Below are positions 6,806 to 23,816 of a stretch of DNA of 64,000 bases, piece after piece. Location of the stretch: NCBI GenBank assembly GCA_964394435.1, contig CAYMXN010000001.1, forward strand, positions 43,739 to 107,738, read 5' to 3'. The notes under the pieces are model-generated. The model saw only the letters and a list, made by a program, of their open reading frames with translations. It had not been told where the DNA came from and did no database searches. How positions within the stretch are numbered: the stretch's first letter is position 1; each line of letters begins with the position of its first letter. A program made the position numbers and the translations under genes. Source of the stretch: an uncultured Candidatus Saccharibacteria bacterium. Its GTDB lineage: Bacteria > Patescibacteriota > Minisyncoccia > UBA6257 > 1-14-0-10-44-23.

Positions 6806-6942
6806 GCTAGCGGGTCTTTTCATTGTGGTACTTTGTTACTGCGGGCTCGCAGTACGCTGTCGCTTATGTACAGCTTCGCCCTTGCGCCTCGTACCGCTAT
6901 GAAAATCCGCCGCTATATATAAATCTTTGCTATTATAATTTA

Positions 6943-7752
6943 ATGCACCCGGTAGCTCAGAGACTTCTTTCTCGGAAAAATAATCAAGCGACTCAGGGCC
7001 ATGGACGGCGCATTATTTTGCTTTCTTATGGCGGTACTATGAGTGGCATGGTAAGCGCGGGTGCACTTATCGCACTTGAAGAGCTTGGGTTGAGAAATGC
7101 GTTTGATGCAATTTATGCTTTTTCCGCCGGAGCTCCTAATGCTGCTTATTTTTTATCTGGACAGGTGAGATTAGGTGCATCGATTTACTACGAGAATCTT
7201 ATCGGGCGTCAGTTTATTAATTTTTTTAAACCTTGGCGTATCGTTAACGTTCCATACCTTATGAATATTTTTGAGTGTACCAAGCGTCTTGAGCCCGTGC
7301 GGATTATGAATGGGGAAACTTCTCTTTTTGTGAGATTGCAAAATATAGTAACGCGGGAGATTGAGTATGTGGATGCTTGTCAGTTTTCGGCGGAAGCAGA
7401 TTTTTTCTCTTTACTTAGAGCAGCAGTTAGTATGCCTTTTCTCACTCCTGGAGCTACCTTAATTCAAGGCAAACGATTTAAGGAGGATCTTTTTGGGTAT
7501 CATAAAGAATTTCTGAAAAGCGTTTTAGCGAAAGAGCCAGATAGTGATGTGGTTATTTTATATAGCAGGGCAAATCAACGTCCGCTTGGCTTTGTTTCTA
7601 GTGACTTAGTGCTTGAACTTATTCCTCCGACTTATTGCGCAATTAACCCACTTGAGACTCGAGGTGATGTCCTGAAGCGTGGTGCTGAACAGATGGGGCG
7701 ATATGTAAAGAGTCTTTTTGAACAGGAAGGTGATATCTCGCTTAAGGATTGA
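6943..7752 (+). CDS. patatin-like phospholipase
   Basis: GGTMSGMVSAGALIALEELG glycine-rich loop and FSAGA serine motif; tataat -10 immediately upstream (6934-6939); internal ATG of ORF 6823..7752. Confidence 0.7.
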   Translation: MHPVAQRLLSRKNNQATQGHGRRIILLSYGGTMSGMVSAGALIALEELGLRNAFDAIYAFSAGAPNAAYFLSGQVRLGASIYYENLIGRQFINFFKPWRIVNVPYLMNIFECTKRLEPVRIMNGETSLFVRLQNIVTREIEYVDACQFSAEADFFSLLRAAVSMPFLTPGATLIQGKRFKEDLFGYHKEFLKSVLAKEPDSDVVILYSRANQRPLGFVSSDLVLELIPPTYCAINPLETRGDVLKRGAEQMGRYVKSLFEQEGDISLKD

Positions 7753-8497: not shown

Positions 8498-8502
8498 TTT
8501 AT

Positions 8503-8811
8503 ATGTTTGCTGTAATTGAAACCGGCGGAAAGCAGTATCGCGTAGCTGCCGGAAACAAGTTAAAAGTTGAGAAACTCGAGGCCGAAGTTAATGGCAATGT
8601 TGTGTTTGATAAGGTGCTTCTTACCGTAGATGGCGAGAAGGTAAACCTTGGCAAACCACTTGTTGCCGGTGCGAAGGTTGAGGCGAAGGTGCTTAGCCAG
8701 GGCCGTGCTGACAAGCTGATCGTATTCAAGTATCATTCAAAGACTCGCCGTCGCAAAAAGAACGGTCATCGTCAGCCATTTACCGAGGTAGAGATTACTT
8801 CGATTAAATAA
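8503..8811 (+). CDS. rplU: 50S ribosomal protein L21
   Basis: MFAVIETGGKQYRV N-terminus; ~100 aa. Confidence 0.9.
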   Translation: MFAVIETGGKQYRVAAGNKLKVEKLEAEVNGNVVFDKVLLTVDGEKVNLGKPLVAGAKVEAKVLSQGRADKLIVFKYHSKTRRRKKNGHRQPFTEVEITSIK

Positions 8812-8820
8812 GAACTTAGC

Positions 8821-8845
8821 AAAACCGCCCGAAAGGGCGGTTTTG
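8821..8845 (+). terminator. rho-independent terminator after rplU
   Basis: aaaaccgccc-gaaa-gggcggtttt. Confidence 0.75.
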
Positions 8846-8944
8846 CATTAAGGGCAATTATTGACTTTGTCTTTGTATTGTGCTATAATATATATTAAGG
8901 CAATCAAGTGAAATTGGTCCTTTGGACCGGAAAGTGAGGTTCGC

Positions 8945-9601
8945 GTGTCGACTCGTCAAAGGTTGATCGCGGACATCTTGTTCGCGGTCCAGATGGTGCT
9001 TGGGATTTGGTTTGCGGTGACGCGAGTCAGTACTGTGCGCGAAGGGCTCGAGGGGGTGCTGATGGGCGAGTTTATTCTCGTTCTGGCGTTCGCACTCCTC
9101 GGTCTTTATCTCGCGCTCGCGTCGCGCCGGCTGCAAAAGAGTCGCATCGTGACGCAGAGCATCATTGTGTACAGTTTCTGGACGGCTGCGCTCGGCGTGC
9201 TCATCGGAGCGACGCTGACGAGTCCGGCTGGGGTGTACCAGTGGAGCACTACCGATACGATTACGGTTGGCGTTGGTGCGCTTGCGGCACTTGTCGTTGT
9301 TTCTATTGGGCGTGGGCGCGGGCTCTCGGTGCGCGACCCGATGGTGCGCGGTTGGACCGCACTGATGCTCAAGGGTTGGCCGCAGCTGATGCTCGCGGTC
9401 AAGATCGCGCTCGAGGGTCACGGGAAGCTTAGGCTTAGTACTGTTATCCTTGGGCACGCAACGATCTTGATTCGTCTTGGGCAGATCTTCTTGTCGGTCA
9501 AGGCTACTGGCTGGGATCGTCCGCGTCGTGGCCTGTGGTTGAGCGAGCTCGGCAATGAGCTCACGTGGTGCGTAACCACGATTGCATGGGTCATCTGGTG
9601 A
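8945..9601 (+). CDS. GC-rich multi-pass membrane protein (GTG start), probable foreign segment
   Basis: 6 hydrophobic helices; about 60% GC versus about 46% genome; RBS gtgagg upstream; antisense ORF judged spurious. Confidence 0.45.
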   Translation: MSTRQRLIADILFAVQMVLGIWFAVTRVSTVREGLEGVLMGEFILVLAFALLGLYLALASRRLQKSRIVTQSIIVYSFWTAALGVLIGATLTSPAGVYQWSTTDTITVGVGALAALVVVSIGRGRGLSVRDPMVRGWTALMLKGWPQLMLAVKIALEGHGKLRLSTVILGHATILIRLGQIFLSVKATGWDRPRRGLWLSELGNELTWCVTTIAWVIW

Positions 9602-9666
9602 TCTCCGGCCCCCACATTCGCGCAAGCGAGTGATGGGGGCTTTTTCATAGATCGTTTTAGAATGAA

Positions 9667-9709
9667 ATAAAAAAGTGATCGAAAGCGCATGGGCGCTACA
9701 TCGATCACT
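9667..9709. repeat. 43-bp element with nested palindrome GTGATCGA-AGCGC-ATGG-GCGCT-ACA-TCGATCAC, copy 1
   Basis: Identical to 10023-10065; located 9 nt after the stop of the 9719..9925 gene (minus strand). Confidence 0.85.
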
Positions 9710-9718
9710 AGTTTCTAC

Positions 9719-9925
9719 TTATTGTACTTTCGTGCCCTTGAGCTGCTTGAGCAGCTCAAGTACCTGCTTTAGTCGTGGCGAGGTGACATAGGTCTTGATG
9801 GCATCCTCTACGATGCGGGTCCTTGTCATGCCCGTCTTTTGCGCAACCTCATCGAGGAGTTTGATGACATCCTCGTGGATTCGGTAGCTAGTCATCTTTA
9901 CTGACCGACGAGCCTTCGGCATCAC
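9719..9925 (-). CDS. ribbon-helix-helix (CopG/Arc/MetJ-like) DNA-binding protein, antitoxin-like
   Basis: 68 aa; beta-strand KMTSYRI then two helices (EDVIKLLDEVAQKTGMTRTRIVEDAIKTYV); paralog of 10077..10280. Confidence 0.55.
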   Translation of the reverse strand: MMPKARRSVKMTSYRIHEDVIKLLDEVAQKTGMTRTRIVEDAIKTYVTSPRLKQVLELLKQLKGTKVQ

Positions 9926-10022
9926 TACTTTCTCCTTAGGGGTGCTGCTTGGCTATCTTAAGCCATATATCTCTTTTTTGTCAATTTAAGAGAGAGGCTT
10001 TTTAGCTCCGGTTTTGAGTTTA

Positions 10023-10065
10023 ATAAAAAAGTGATCGAAAGCGCATGGGCGCTACATCGATCACT
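10023..10065. repeat. 43-bp palindromic element, copy 2
   Basis: Identical to 9667-9709; 12 nt after the stop of the 10077..10280 gene. Confidence 0.85.
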
Positions 10066-10076
10066 TAGAGGGGATT

Positions 10077-10280
10077 CTACTTCACTTTCAAGTTTTCCAG
10101 TTCTGCCAGAAGGGATTTCACTTTTTTGCACCTTTGTGAGGTGGCGTAGCTTCTGATCGCGTCTACGGCGACACCAGTTCTTGTCCAGTGCATTTTCTTC
10201 GCGATTTTGTCGAGAAGTCTATAGACTTCGAGAGGAAGTCGGCAAGTAAACATCTTTTTCGGTTGATGGCCTTTCGGCAT
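10077..10280 (-). CDS. ribbon-helix-helix (CopG-like) DNA-binding protein, paralog
   Basis: 67 aa; FTCRLPLEVYRLLDKIAKKMHWTRTGVAVDAIRSY fits the RHH pattern. Confidence 0.55.
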   Translation of the reverse strand: MPKGHQPKKMFTCRLPLEVYRLLDKIAKKMHWTRTGVAVDAIRSYATSQRCKKVKSLLAELENLKVK

Positions 10281-10377
10281 CGCAACCTCCTTCTTGGGTT
10301 ATTGGCACTGCTCGAGTATTCTATGTTATATATTCGAGCGCAGTCAAGGTTGCTATAAGAAGTTTTGCTTCGTAAAT

Positions 10378-10971
10378 TTAACTTCGGTTTTTGAGTGAGT
10401 CGATGAGTGTTTGTTCGTCGGCAAACTCGATTTCACCGCCCGTTGGGATGCCGCGGGCGAGGCGGGTAATTTTTTGAGATAAGCCTTTTAGTTCGCCGGC
10501 GAGCAATGAGGCGTTGAGGTCGCCGATGGTGGTTGGTGAGAGTGCGATAATAATCTCGTTGAGTATGCCGGTTTTTTCCGTTGTTTTTTTGAGTACGGCG
10601 ATACGCGTCTTGTGTTGCATATCCAGGCTGCCGGCTTTTTTAATATCACCGACAATGAGATAGCGGCCGGTGAATGATTTAGCTTTTTCGAGCGTTAGGA
10701 CGTCGGTATCTTTTTCAACTACCGCGACAATGGTTTGATCTCGTTTTGGGTCGGTACAGATTGAGCAGAGGGGGCCGGTATTGTCGTGCATTAAAAAGCA
10801 CTGCTCGCACTCTTTGAGTTTTGTCAGGCTCGCGAGTGTTGTGCTGTAGTTGCTGATTTCGGATTTTGATAATCGTGCGAGGTAAAAGGCGAGACGTAGT
10901 CCTTGGCGTGGGCCAATGCCGGGAAGCTCGGCGAGGCGTTTGGCGAGTTCTTTAATCGCAGAAGGAGTCAT
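10378..10971 (-). CDS. recR: recombination protein RecR
   Basis: HhH N-terminus (LPGIGPRQ), C4 zinc finger CEQC...CSIC, Toprim domain. Confidence 0.9.
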   Translation of the reverse strand: MTPSAIKELAKRLAELPGIGPRQGLRLAFYLARLSKSEISNYSTTLASLTKLKECEQCFLMHDNTGPLCSICTDPKRDQTIVAVVEKDTDVLTLEKAKSFTGRYLIVGDIKKAGSLDMQHKTRIAVLKKTTEKTGILNEIIIALSPTTIGDLNASLLAGELKGLSQKITRLARGIPTGGEIEFADEQTLIDSLKNRS

Positions 10972-10979
10972 AGGCGGGG

Positions 10980-12305
10980 TTATGAGTGATGGGTGTCGAT
11001 ATTTCTAAAGGTCGACATCTCTTGCTCGAAGCGTACGGAAATAGAGCCGGTTGGACCGTTGCGGTGTTTGGCGACGATAAGCTCGGTTGCACCCTCATCA
11101 ACCGGGTCGAGTCCGGTCTTACCTTTGTTTTTACGCCAAATAAAGATAACGACGTCGGCGTCTTGTTCGATCGAGCCGGAGTCGCGGAGGTCAGAAAGGC
11201 GTGGTTCACCATCACGCTGTTCGGTTGCACGGGAGAGCTGGGAGAGGGCGACGACTGGTACGTTGAGTTCACGCGCGAGTCCTTTAAGACCACGGCTGAT
11301 TTCTGTAATCTGACTGACGATGTTGTCGCTGGTGGTGCGAGGTTGAATAAGTTGGAGATAGTCGATAATCAGCAGGTCGAGGCCGTGTTCTGACTGTAGG
11401 CGGCGAGCCATCGCGCGCATTTGGAGTACGGTTGGGCTTGGGGTGTCGTCGATGTGTAGGGATGATTGTGAAAGAGTATCTAGGGCGTGAGGGATAAACT
11501 CAAGGTCGCCTTCGTTTAGTTTGCCGGTGCGTAGTTTCCAAAGGGGAACGCTCGCTTCAGCGGCGATGATACGGTCGATGACTTGTTCGTTGCTCATTTC
11601 AAGCGAGAAGATGCCGACGTGTTTGCCTTCGCGCAGTGAGGCGTGGCGGGCGATGTCTAAGGCGAGGGAGGTTTTACCGACAGATGGACGCGCACCAATA
11701 ATAATCAAGTCTGATTTTTGGAATCCGGAGAGTTTTTCGTCGAGTTGAGTAAGTCCACTGCCGATACCACGGAGGCGACCTTCACCATTTTTTAGTTTTT
11801 CGATACGTTCGGCCGCTTCTTTCAGTTTGTCGCGAACAGCGTAAAACTTTTGACTGACCGAACCTTGGGAGATGGAAAAGATTCTACTTTCGATCTGGTC
11901 TAGGAGTTGCGGGAGGTCGTCGGTAGCAGTAAACGCGTCTTCGCTGATTTTCGCCGAAGTGCTGATAAGATCGCGGAGAATTTTTTTCTCTTTGACGAGT
12001 TTCGCGTAGTGCTCGACGTGGCTGGCGGTTGGTACTTTCTCGGTGAGAATCGTGAGTGCGGTAGCTCCTCCGATTTGTTCGAGGTGTCCGGCGTCCTTGA
12101 GTGCGTTGGTGACGGTTAAGATATCAATTGGTAAGCGCTTTTCAAACAGCTTTAGAAATGTAGCGTAGATGATTGAGTTAGTTGGATTATAAAAGTCTTC
12201 AGCGCGCAAAATATCTGCGACGCGAATGATCGCATCTTTATCAAGCATTAGCGCACCGAGCACTGATTCTTCAGCCTCCAGATTTTGAGGTGGTAGTTTG
12301 GTCAT
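10980..12305 (-). CDS. dnaB: replicative DNA helicase DnaB
   Basis: Walker A GARPSVGKTSLALD; DnaB N-terminal LPPQNLEAEESVLGALM. Confidence 0.9.
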   Translation of the reverse strand: MTKLPPQNLEAEESVLGALMLDKDAIIRVADILRAEDFYNPTNSIIYATFLKLFEKRLPIDILTVTNALKDAGHLEQIGGATALTILTEKVPTASHVEHYAKLVKEKKILRDLISTSAKISEDAFTATDDLPQLLDQIESRIFSISQGSVSQKFYAVRDKLKEAAERIEKLKNGEGRLRGIGSGLTQLDEKLSGFQKSDLIIIGARPSVGKTSLALDIARHASLREGKHVGIFSLEMSNEQVIDRIIAAEASVPLWKLRTGKLNEGDLEFIPHALDTLSQSSLHIDDTPSPTVLQMRAMARRLQSEHGLDLLIIDYLQLIQPRTTSDNIVSQITEISRGLKGLARELNVPVVALSQLSRATEQRDGEPRLSDLRDSGSIEQDADVVIFIWRKNKGKTGLDPVDEGATELIVAKHRNGPTGSISVRFEQEMSTFRNIDTHHS

Positions 12306-20874: not shown

Positions 20875-21501
20875 ATGAAGGCGACGGTCTCGCTTTGCTC
20901 TGGCTGGAGAGAGCTTCTAGGCCCCGGTGTCGTCGAGGCGATGACACCGATCTCTGTCGATCCGATCGGACGCGAGAGCTGGGTGTGCGATCGTGCACAC
21001 GCTGGTCTTTTGCAGAAGATCCATTCGAGGGGTGCTGCGATTCGGTATCACTTTGAAGTGTCTCTTGGCGGTACTGCTCTCACCGAAGGTGAGTGTCGTG
21101 ACCAAAAGAGCGATTGTGCGATCATTGTGCGGCCCAATAGTCCGATCTCTCCGACCGGACAAGTGGTGTGTGTTTCCGCGAGGTCTCTTGATTGGGCGGC
21201 AGCGGCGATGTCCCACGTTCTCTCGGGTGAGCACTTCGCGACGCCCTTTGTCGCAGCTTCGCTGGCGAGGCCGAGCGGTTCGTATCAAGAAATGATTGCT
21301 CCGTTTGAGCGGTTGATGCTCGTGAGCGTTCTTTCTCGAAACAATTGGAGTCGTCAACGCTCTGCGGCAGAGCTTGGAATCTCTCGGCAGACGCTTCACA
21401 ATCGAATGGTGGCGCTTGAGCTTTATCAGGACTTGGCGTATCTCTGGCGGAAGGTTTCGTCTGTCGAGCAGCTGTTCCTTACGCCGACGTTGGCTGGCTG
21501 A
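20875..21501 (+). CDS. GC-rich hypothetical protein with C-terminal Fis-type HTH (AELGISRQTLHNRM)
   Basis: About 58% GC island next to tRNA-Lys; plus-strand ORF preferred over Arg-rich antisense ORF; terminator follows. Confidence 0.35.
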   Translation: MKATVSLCSGWRELLGPGVVEAMTPISVDPIGRESWVCDRAHAGLLQKIHSRGAAIRYHFEVSLGGTALTEGECRDQKSDCAIIVRPNSPISPTGQVVCVSARSLDWAAAAMSHVLSGEHFATPFVAASLARPSGSYQEMIAPFERLMLVSVLSRNNWSRQRSAAELGISRQTLHNRMVALELYQDLAYLWRKVSSVEQLFLTPTLAG

Positions 21502-22916: not shown

Positions 22917-23816
22917 ATGAACATCATTAAACACAAGTGGGTCTTTCTGGCGTTTTCCAGTCTGTTGATTGTTGCGAGTATTTTTGGTCTTTTTGCTTTC
23001 GGCCTTGAGAAAGGTATTGATTTTACTGGTGGTACGTACTGGCAGATTGAGTTTGGTAAGCCAGTAGAGCTTCCTGCGTTACGTACGTTTGTACAAACTG
23101 ATTTGAAATTGGCTGATGCGGCGGTAAACCAGCAAGAGTCAACCGGCGGATTTATTATCAAGGCGAAAGAAATTACTGAAGCTGACCACCAGACGTACAG
23201 TAAGGCGCTTATCAAAAAGTTTGGTGCGATGACCGAGCTTAGCTTTCAGGCGATTGGTGCGGCGATTGGTTCAGAATTAGTTAATCGTGCGTTTTGGGCG
23301 TTAGGTATTAACTTATTTGGTATCGCGCTGTATGTCGCGTACGCGTTTCGTAAAGTTTCGTACCCGGTTAGTAGCTGGAAGTACGCGTTTATCACTTTGA
23401 TTACACTGTTTCACGATGCAATTATTCCGCTTGGTATGTACACGTTCCTCGGACACTTCCTAGGAGTAGAGATTGATACCAACTTTATTGTTGCGGTGCT
23501 GCTGGTTATCGGTTTCTCGGTACACGACACCATTGTTGTGTTTGACCGTATTCGTGAAAACCTTCGCCACACCGATACGAGTAAGGTGCACTTCGGAGAG
23601 TTGGTAAACCGCAGCATCAACGAAACGTTTGCTCGCTCACTCAATACTTCGCTTACTCTGTTTATCGTCCTCGCGGTATTACTTCTTCTTGGAGCGACAA
23701 CGCTTAAGTACTTTATCTTAACTATCTTGGTTGGTACGGTTGTTGGAACATACTCTTCAATTTTCGTCGCTTCACCGCTTCTCGTTCTCTGGAATACGTC
23801 TGCGAAGGTTAAGTAA
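22917..23816 (+). CDS. secF: protein translocase subunit SecF
   Basis: Follows secD; six TM segments; SecF-family conserved C-terminal region. Confidence 0.85.
   Translation: MNIIKHKWVFLAFSSLLIVASIFGLFAFGLEKGIDFTGGTYWQIEFGKPVELPALRTFVQTDLKLADAAVNQQESTGGFIIKAKEITEADHQTYSKALIKKFGAMTELSFQAIGAAIGSELVNRAFWALGINLFGIALYVAYAFRKVSYPVSSWKYAFITLITLFHDAIIPLGMYTFLGHFLGVEIDTNFIVAVLLVIGFSVHDTIVVFDRIRENLRHTDTSKVHFGELVNRSINETFARSLNTSLTLFIVLAVLLLLGATTLKYFILTILVGTVVGTYSSIFVASPLLVLWNTSAKVK

Follow-up and report, generated by a model that had tools for sequence, protein, structure and literature searches.

The DNA targets of ribbon-helix-helix (RHH) proteins such as CopG, Arc, MetJ, and omega are short repeats, either inverted or direct. 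CopG (RepA) of pMV158, the prototype of the Pfam family RHH_1 (PDB 2cpg, 1b01, and 1ea4), has 45 amino acids (aa); its gene opens the copG-repB plasmid replication operon, and its operator overlaps the promoter. The RHH-type antitoxins of type II toxin-antitoxin systems (AtaR/TacA/KacA, EndoAI/MazE-RHH, RelB, and ParD) combine the same N-terminal RHH fold with a C-terminal helix and are defined by a bicistronic operon shared with the toxin gene. The locus described here is a tandem pair of RHH genes, RHH1 and RHH2, on the minus strand of a stretch of 64,000 nucleotides (nt) from an uncultured Candidatus Saccharibacteria bacterium (contig CAYMXN010000001.1, positions 43,739 to 107,738), referred to below as the window. 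Each gene is followed by a copy of the same 44-nt hairpin element, which from its shape and position is very probably a Rho-independent terminator. The coding sequences of the paralogues are mutationally saturated, yet the copies behind them match at 100% of positions, in loop and bulges as well, and it is this identity that sets them apart from usual terminators. The two genes and the two copies of the element are located as follows.

9719-9922, minus strand: RHH1 gene, the downstream paralogue; ATG start, 67 aa, with an in-frame GTG also at 9925.
10077-10280, minus strand: RHH2 gene, the upstream paralogue; open reading frame (ORF) of 67 aa.
9666-9709, minus strand: predicted terminator copy 1; 44-nt element, separated by 9 nt from the stop codon of RHH1 and pointing toward the terminator of a convergent GC-rich gene.
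10022-10065, minus strand: predicted terminator copy 2; 44-nt element, separated by 11 nt from the stop codon of RHH2; the −35 box of P1, the RHH1 promoter, follows ∼37 nt downstream.

On the minus strand, the element reads AGTGATCGATGTAGCGCCCATGCGCTTTCGATCACTTTTTTATT. The palindrome consists of an outer stem (GTGATCGA/TCGATCAC) that encloses an inner stem (AGCGC/GCGCT), and its layout on the coding strand is AGUGAUCGA-UGU-AGCGC-CCAU-GCGCU-U-UCGAUCACU-UUUUUUAUU. The 9-bp outer stem and the 5-bp inner stem thus build a bulged 14-bp hairpin with bulges of 3 nt and 1 nt and a tetraloop, followed directly by a run of six U residues. Calculations with ViennaRNA, together with a custom scan for hairpins followed by a T-run, give −19.6 kcal/mol for the hairpin of copy 1 alone and −19.7 kcal/mol for that of copy 2. 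With their flanks, copy 1 reaches −24 kcal/mol (z = −6.65) and copy 2 reaches −21.7 kcal/mol (z = −5.24), and 0 of 200 shuffled sequences fold as well. A simple consensus terminator scan missed the hairpin because of its bulges. The computable features of an intrinsic terminator are present in both copies: a stem-loop with a U-tract, in the sense orientation just past a stop codon. The element shares with canonical Rho-independent terminators a GC-containing stem-loop of about −20 kcal/mol, six U residues, and a position 9 to 11 nt past the stop, and assignment to this class can be made with considerable confidence as far as shape is a guide. An earlier interpretation of the same DNA, made from the letters alone (here called the sequence-only reading), had described an identical 43-bp element 9 to 12 nt behind each gene, with a nested palindrome enclosing AGCGC...GCGCT, and had left it as either a terminator or an operator. 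Identity, close spacing, and nested palindrome are borne out by the stem analysis, the size is corrected to 44 nt, the spacers measure 9 and 11 nt, and of the two functions the terminator is favored by the U-tract, by the position directly after the stop codons, and by copy 1, which has no promoter nearby.

The 44-nt element is the core of a longer repeat, whose two copies of 57 nt are 91% identical and start 356 nt apart. Residual homology outside the core is seen in the sequence AAGTAGAA at both stop codons. When the two units are aligned, the identity over a sliding 20 nt lies between 0.30 and 0.70 across promoter, untranslated region, and coding sequence, rises to 1.00 solely across the hairpin, and is back to 0.45 behind it. 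At a background identity of 55%, a run of 44 consecutive matches has a probability of the order of 1e-12. The weak flanking similarity mentioned in the sequence-only reading is recovered in the 57-nt repeat, and so is its observation that the noncoding element is better conserved than the genes (44 of 44 positions, compared with 55% of the coding nucleotides). Logan contigs assembled from the short reads of four sequencing runs (L031, L032, L033, and L035) all stop at or inside the element, as contigs do at a genuine repeat that exceeds the assembly k-mer, and the repeat is therefore no artifact of one assembly.

The proteins diverge far more than the hairpins behind them. Aligned from a common ATG-CCG-AAR start, RHH1 and RHH2 comprise 67 residues each and are 43% identical over these 67 residues without a gap (BLASTP, E = 1e-17), in agreement with the tandem paralogues of 67 to 68 aa and about 40% identity seen in the sequence-only reading. 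The coding sequences show 55% nucleotide identity. Third codon positions are alike in 26 of 67 codons (39%), and the same codon is used at 12 of the 29 residues conserved between the two proteins, 2 of the 12 being ATG. Synonymous sites are therefore saturated, which makes the duplication an old one.

Copies of the element elsewhere are lacking in everything searched. The window holds two copies, even when 3 mismatches are allowed, with 0.00 expected from 100 shuffles, and the element is absent from the other fetched loci, including the corresponding locus of a sister genome and ∼8.5 kb past the window end (L065). The complete element with its stems fixed has 0 matches in 185,579 species-representative genomes, the JGI metagenomes, and IMG/VR. 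The search for further copies proposed in the sequence-only reading, run over ∼72 kb and these public collections, thus returns only the two gene-linked ones. A relaxed pattern of outer stem and T-run alone matches 22 metagenome contigs, which carry ordinary terminator-like hairpins with other interiors and no gene of the RHH1/RHH2 family nearby; these look-alikes were rejected as relatives, being unrelated hairpins that hold no information on the family. In the custom scan of the window, other hairpins with a T-run follow the genes at 425-1153, 20875-21501, and 22917-23816 as well as the GC-rich gene (∼9607-9645), and their sequences all differ from one another. Rfam has no match at the element within the scanned region 8500-11500. 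The lone Rfam match in that region is NsiR4 at 8822-8873 on the minus strand, with 25.6 bits compared to a gathering score of 40; it overlaps the terminator hairpin of rplU (AAAACCGCCCGAAAGGGCGGTTTTG), which almost certainly gave rise to a spurious match.

Upstream of each gene, a scan with a sigma-70-like consensus scores one promoter, and a Shine-Dalgarno sequence and an inverted repeat can be assigned to each unit.

10318-10347, minus strand: predicted promoter P2 of RHH2; TTGACT, 18-nt spacer, TAGAAT, 10 of 12 consensus positions.
9955-9984, minus strand: predicted promoter P1 of RHH1; TTGACA, 18-nt spacer, TAAGAT, 10 of 12 consensus positions.
10287-10293, minus strand: Shine-Dalgarno sequence of RHH2; AAGGAGG, read from the sequence.
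9932-9937, minus strand: Shine-Dalgarno sequence of RHH1; AAGGAG, read from the sequence.
10310-10339, no strand assigned: candidate operator of P2; GCTCGAGTAT-N10-ATATTCGAGC, complementary at 9 of 10 positions, spanning the spacer and the −10 box.
9950-9965, no strand assigned: candidate operator of P1; TGGCT-N6-AGCCA, a 5-bp stem bracketing the −10 hexamer.

With a promoter, a Shine-Dalgarno sequence, and a terminator of its own, each RHH gene forms a self-contained monocistronic unit, and the two stand in tandem without building an operon. The inverted repeat at P2 is not significant by itself, as 22% of shuffled sequences hold one at least as good, and only its location over the −10 box is suggestive. 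The palindrome at P1 is likewise a candidate operator by position, and the two repeats differ from each other. Even so, these promoter repeats are likelier operators than the 44-nt hairpin.

RHH1 matches Pfam RHH_1 (PF01402) with 24.5 bits (cutoff, 20.5) and PHROG 3887, annotated as a transcriptional regulator, with an E value of 1.4e-10; RHH2 has no direct Pfam match. An alignment of 29 sequences (A3), made up of the two proteins of the window and 27 distant relatives, contains 23 sequences that match RHH_1. The joint family profile finds CopG of pMV158 (E = 1.2e-6); it likewise matches two antitoxins of the RHH type, EndoAI and MazE6, and there is a weak RelB-like NCBIfam match. None of the family models for type II antitoxins reaches its cutoff for either protein. 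An AlphaFold2 model of RHH2 computed from the 29-sequence alignment has a predicted local distance difference test (pLDDT) score of 84.9 and replaces an earlier, poor model built from a two-sequence alignment (pLDDT, 60). It shows helices at residues 17-30, 34-47, and 49-63, the first two preceded by an extended segment. This strand receives no DSSP assignment in the monomer because it pairs only in the dimer. The best Foldseek matches of the model are the CopG structures 1b01 and 1ea4, with a target-normalized template modeling score (TM-score) of 0.86 to 0.89 and a root-mean-square deviation (RMSD) of 1.0 Å, followed by Arc and several RHH antitoxins. Alignments to the antitoxins AtaR, KacA, TacA, and SO_1444 span 58 to 68 columns, and the third helix (residues 49-63) can be loosely matched to the C-terminal helix in each of AtaR, KacA, and TacA. 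The residues of the β-strand predicted to face the DNA are similar in RHH1 and RHH2 (S/T12 and R14; alignment A1). The RHH fold is thus well supported, and the CopG-like assignment of the sequence-only reading is upheld by the Pfam score of 24.5 bits, the CopG profile match, and the Foldseek score of 0.89 for CopG; the comparison with CopG, ParD, and Arc that it had called for leads to CopG of pMV158 in the profile search (E = 1.2e-6). Both proteins are, with high confidence, RHH proteins predicted to bind DNA.

Compared with CopG, their best match in both structure and profile (RMSD of 1.0 Å over 43 residues), RHH1 and RHH2 are alike in being small RHH proteins that stand alone, not paired with a toxin, and autorepression would be expected by analogy. 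Sequence identity to CopG is only ∼28%, and the 67-aa proteins carry an extra C-terminal helix. Unlike copG, their genes lie on the chromosome as monocistronic units without a neighboring rep gene, and to our knowledge nothing like the shared 3′ hairpin has been described for CopG. Functionally, the two proteins most resemble stand-alone repressors of the CopG/Arc class. As a family, they are very isolated. When 1.84 billion representative proteins are searched exhaustively with a profile, only RHH1 and RHH2 score strongly; the next match is a generic RHH protein (E = 8e-11), and the remainder are generic small RHH proteins. Each of the two is a singleton among 5.8 billion clusters at 90% identity, where the word-indexed search returned the query alone. 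Relatives are found neither by tblastn against phage and plasmid records nor by a degenerate-pattern scan of IMG/VR viral contigs, and the 64-kb window contains no third copy of the family. RHH2 is recorded solely from Logan assemblies and not in NCBI; it may have remained uncalled as a gene in the deposited genome.

Taken together, each unit would consist of a sigma-70-type promoter, a strong Shine-Dalgarno sequence, a 67-codon ORF, and a Rho-independent terminator. The most likely function of the RHH proteins is that of transcriptional repressors working as dimers, and each would probably control its own synthesis by way of the inverted repeat that overlaps the −10 box in its promoter. The hairpins would end transcription, and copy 2 would in addition shield RHH1 from read-through out of RHH2. 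The two units descend from an ancient duplication. Selection on structure alone permits compensatory changes in the stems and free variation of loop, bulges, and tail, and it therefore fails to explain the perfect identity of the hairpins, which needs either gene conversion or a sequence-specific constraint. Gene conversion (concerted evolution), taken here as the best explanation, would be confined to a short island of homology; alternatively, the terminator of one unit may have been copied recently onto the other. The identical tracts of 44 to 57 nt would be the sole substrate for homologous exchange in the unit, so that homogenization could sustain itself while the rest drifts. The chances that gene conversion is the cause of the identity are judged to be evenly balanced, and the explanation as a whole is considered rather more likely than not.

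Several points weigh against this explanation. Termination is read from the shape of the element alone. Conversion normally needs flanking homology, and the flanks are only ∼55% identical here; moreover, a tract of 44 to 57 nt is near the lower limit for RecA-dependent exchange. Sequence-specific selection, for example by a protein that recognizes the palindrome, would produce the same identity, and a single genome cannot separate it from conversion. The similar DNA-facing residues (S/T12 and R14) fit a shared target of the two proteins, yet the inverted repeats at the two promoters differ. In the source genome, the search for copies covered ∼72 kb, comprising the 64-kb window and the ∼8.5 kb in L065.

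A palindrome-recognizing protein could be encoded at the locus itself. The element would then be, in place of a terminator or on top of it, an operator in which RHH dimers bind the inverted GTGATCGA arms, the inner AGCGC-N4-GCGCT, or both; copy 2 would allow RHH2, RHH1, or the two together to control P1, and specific recognition would explain the conservation. The identity indeed takes in loop and bulge bases that a purely structural terminator does not need, P1 has copy 2 immediately in front of it, and both paralogues have similar residues at the strand positions presumed to read the DNA, as would suit proteins whose known relatives bind short inverted or direct repeats. The ATCAC of the arm also resembles the heptad WATCACW of the omega repressor, a lead only and not a test. 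Copy 1, however, is placed between two convergent terminators, where there is no promoter to control, and the outer arms are 26 bp apart from center to center, a distance atypical of RHH operators. Each promoter has an inverted repeat of its own at the −10 box, the usual position of an operator, and termination fully accounts for the U-tract and the position behind the stop codon. An operator function of the hairpin is therefore regarded as unlikely.

The remaining alternatives draw on the surroundings of the genes, which lie in a slot of variable content together with one further gene.

8849-10377, no strand assigned: slot of variable content, bounded by the terminator of rplU and the stop codon of recR; contains the GC-rich membrane gene and both RHH modules.
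8945-9601, plus strand: GC-rich membrane gene; 60% GC, 218 aa, multipass, convergent with RHH1; promoter at 8861-8889 and terminator at ∼9607-9645.

The slot is flanked by rplU (8503-8811, plus strand) on one side and by recR, dnaB, and cysS on the minus strand on the other. A RecR-based scan identified a sister Candidatus Saccharibacteria metagenome-assembled genome (locus L001) with a RecR that is 96% identical. The flanks of window and sister locus are collinear in BLASTN, with 86% and 81% nucleotide identity on the two sides. On the recR side, collinearity halts exactly at the stop codon of that gene (window position 10377); on the other side, it halts at 8850, immediately behind the terminator of rplU. 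The slot measures 1.5 kb in the window and 0.67 kb in the sister genome (10596-11266), where its cargo is a single AT-rich ORF (34% GC) of 222 aa with an HNH-like CxxC motif region. This ORF has a subthreshold match to Pfam HNH_5 and PADLOC matches of the PDC-M01B or PtuB-like type (E = 3e-7 to 1e-4). As the content of the slot differs between the two genomes, the RHH pair is accessory, lineage-specific DNA, and the recR-rplU interval may represent a mini-hotspot of accessory or defense-type genes. None of the other fetched recR loci encodes an RHH protein of the RHH1/RHH2 family.

The GC-rich gene has homologues with 36 to 88% identity in other contexts without RHH neighbors, and it was therefore rejected as a conserved partner of the RHH genes. 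At every locus examined, this gene family is richer in GC than its surroundings; high GC is a family trait and was rejected as stand-alone proof of foreign origin. The sequence-only reading had placed the module beside a GC-rich foreign segment. The adjacency holds, and high GC alone is no proof of transfer; the segment that the sister genome lacks is also larger than this one gene and takes in the whole slot (8849-10377) with the RHH pair. In NCBI, the ORF has a later start and 202 aa, compared with 218 aa in Logan and in the window. In a contig with an 85% identical homologue of this gene (L040; JGI 3300045394, Ga0490021_040271), the place that the RHH genes have in the window is taken, downstream of the homologue, by a tandem array (..TGCGAGCYA-N10-TGAAATCCA-N9..) at positions ∼1050-1485 that repeats every ∼37 nt.

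A setting of this kind would also suit orphan antitoxins. The amphipathic C-terminal helix (residues 49-63) would neutralize a toxin whose gene lies at another place in the genome, on a mobile element, or in a phage; the RHH part would autoregulate, and the hairpin would stay a terminator. At 67 aa, the proteins extend past the 45-aa core of CopG by a C-terminal helix, which is consistent with this idea, as are the Foldseek alignments to AtaR, KacA, TacA, and SO_1444, the profile matches to EndoAI and MazE6, the weak RelB-like NCBIfam match, and an accessory slot that holds a defense-like HNH gene (PtuB or PDC-M01B-like) in the sister genome. A C-terminal helix, on the other hand, is also found in RHH regulators that are not antitoxins, and no antitoxin model reaches its cutoff. 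The bicistronic toxin operon that defines type II antitoxins is missing, and no toxin-like ORF is adjacent on either strand: among the ORFs of at least 25 aa on both strands of 9640-10380, none is toxin-like, and the six largest non-RHH ORFs have no Pfam match at an E value of ≤0.1. The neighbors are recR and the convergent membrane gene, so that the absence of a toxin partner claimed in the sequence-only reading is borne out, and neither another RHH protein of the family nor a partner was detected in the 64-kb window. An antitoxin role is accordingly thought improbable.

A variable slot likewise invites comparison with integron attC sites and chromosomal cassette arrays, in which a highly similar bulged hairpin also follows successive small genes in an accessory region. 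The 44-nt copies would in that case be direct repeats left by insertion at an attC- or att-like hairpin site, the cassette would be the 312 nt at 9710-10021 comprising P1 and RHH1, and the paralogues would have diverged elsewhere beforehand. The perfect direct repeats do bracket a complete promoter-gene unit, bases bulge out of the helix of the hairpin just as they do in attC sites, the identity falls off sharply beyond the element, and the slot carries other cargo in the sister genome. The attC form of this idea was rejected for lack of core sites at or near the element: GTTRRRY does not occur in 9600-10400, and a lone RYYYAAC at 10376 is unrelated to the element. Unlike attC arrays, the locus has no R″/R′ core sites, no integrase in the slot, a promoter for each gene, and only two copies, and its genes are paralogues instead of unrelated cargo. 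No recombinase ORF is present in the 1.5-kb slot at 8849-10377, and further sites are absent from the window, the sister locus, the 185,579 representative genomes, the JGI metagenomes, and IMG/VR; the weak homology on both sides of the element is what a tandem duplication would leave. Insertion as a cassette is thus very unlikely. Equally slim are the chances of the broader proposition that the hairpin is more than a terminator, either as a shared site bound by the RHH proteins, as DNA or as an RNA 3′ end, that couples both units or as a recombination site through which promoter-gene-hairpin cassettes are exchanged in the recR-rplU slot. A dispersed repeat resembling repetitive extragenic palindromes or miniature inverted-repeat transposable elements is not supported by any search, with only two gene-linked copies in 64 kb at ≤3 mismatches and none in public contig collections.

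Some further features of the RHH genes and of the window can be recorded. Two ORFs on the plus strand (9675-9791 and 10031-10156) start inside the hairpin, antisense to the RHH genes; they were rejected as genes, having neither a Shine-Dalgarno sequence nor a Pfam match. They have 12 residues in common, because both begin in the identical element, and then diverge at once. The 3′ part of the RHH1 coding sequence contains a perfect 24-bp palindrome with 11-bp arms (CTTGAGCTGCT-CA-AGCAGCTCAAG, 9737-9760) in the codons for LELLKQLK, ∼30 nt upstream of the RHH1 terminator, and the equivalent place in RHH2 holds only a palindrome with 5-bp arms (TTCTG-G-CAGAA). The RHH1 palindrome may be a by-product of the mutually reverse-complementary codons for L, K, E, and Q, or it may be an additional RNA hairpin or binding site. 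The junction of RHH1 stop codon and hairpin (9704-9721; minus strand TAAGTAGAAACTAGTGAT) is identical at 16 of 18 positions to the region of the RHH1 Shine-Dalgarno sequence and start codon (9921-9938; TAAGGAGAAAGTAGTGAT). A match of this quality has a chance probability of roughly 0.005 to 0.04 in a region of this size, and RHH2 has no comparable one.

One kilobase from the slot, a gene for a patatin-like phospholipase (ORF 6823/7039-7752, plus strand; Pfam Patatin, 36.7 bits) is missing from the otherwise collinear sister locus. At the corresponding position (window 6921-7751), the sister genome has ∼100 bp between a HIT-family gene and a tRNA-Glu region, a second strain-specific insertion or deletion. 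Most genes of the window are on the plus strand, with recR, dnaB, cysS, and both RHH genes on the minus strand. All 1-kb bins show a positive GC skew, and the cumulative curve climbs without reversal over positions 1-64000; the window therefore lies within one replichore, without a switch at an origin or terminus.

The locus thus adds very isolated new members to the RHH proteins in an arrangement that is essentially ordinary. Its only oddity, the perfect identity of two terminators behind saturated paralogues, can be explained by known processes. A greater importance would arise only if the palindrome were a site for protein recognition or recombination; as a recombination site, it would represent a minimal cassette system without a recognizable integron. 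For annotation, the locus calls for caution, as RHH2 is absent from NCBI records and short-read assemblies break at the 44-nt repeat. The locus can also serve as a marker of the variable recR-rplU slot, with an HNH defense-like gene in one genome and RHH regulators together with a membrane protein in a close relative. If the explanation favored here, with ordinary units and hairpins homogenized after an old duplication, is true, little is at stake beyond two orphan CopG-like regulators added to the accessory genome of Saccharibacteria. The pair would also offer a clean, small case of concerted evolution limited to a terminator hairpin and a simple test case for gene conversion versus sequence-specific selection acting on a terminator.

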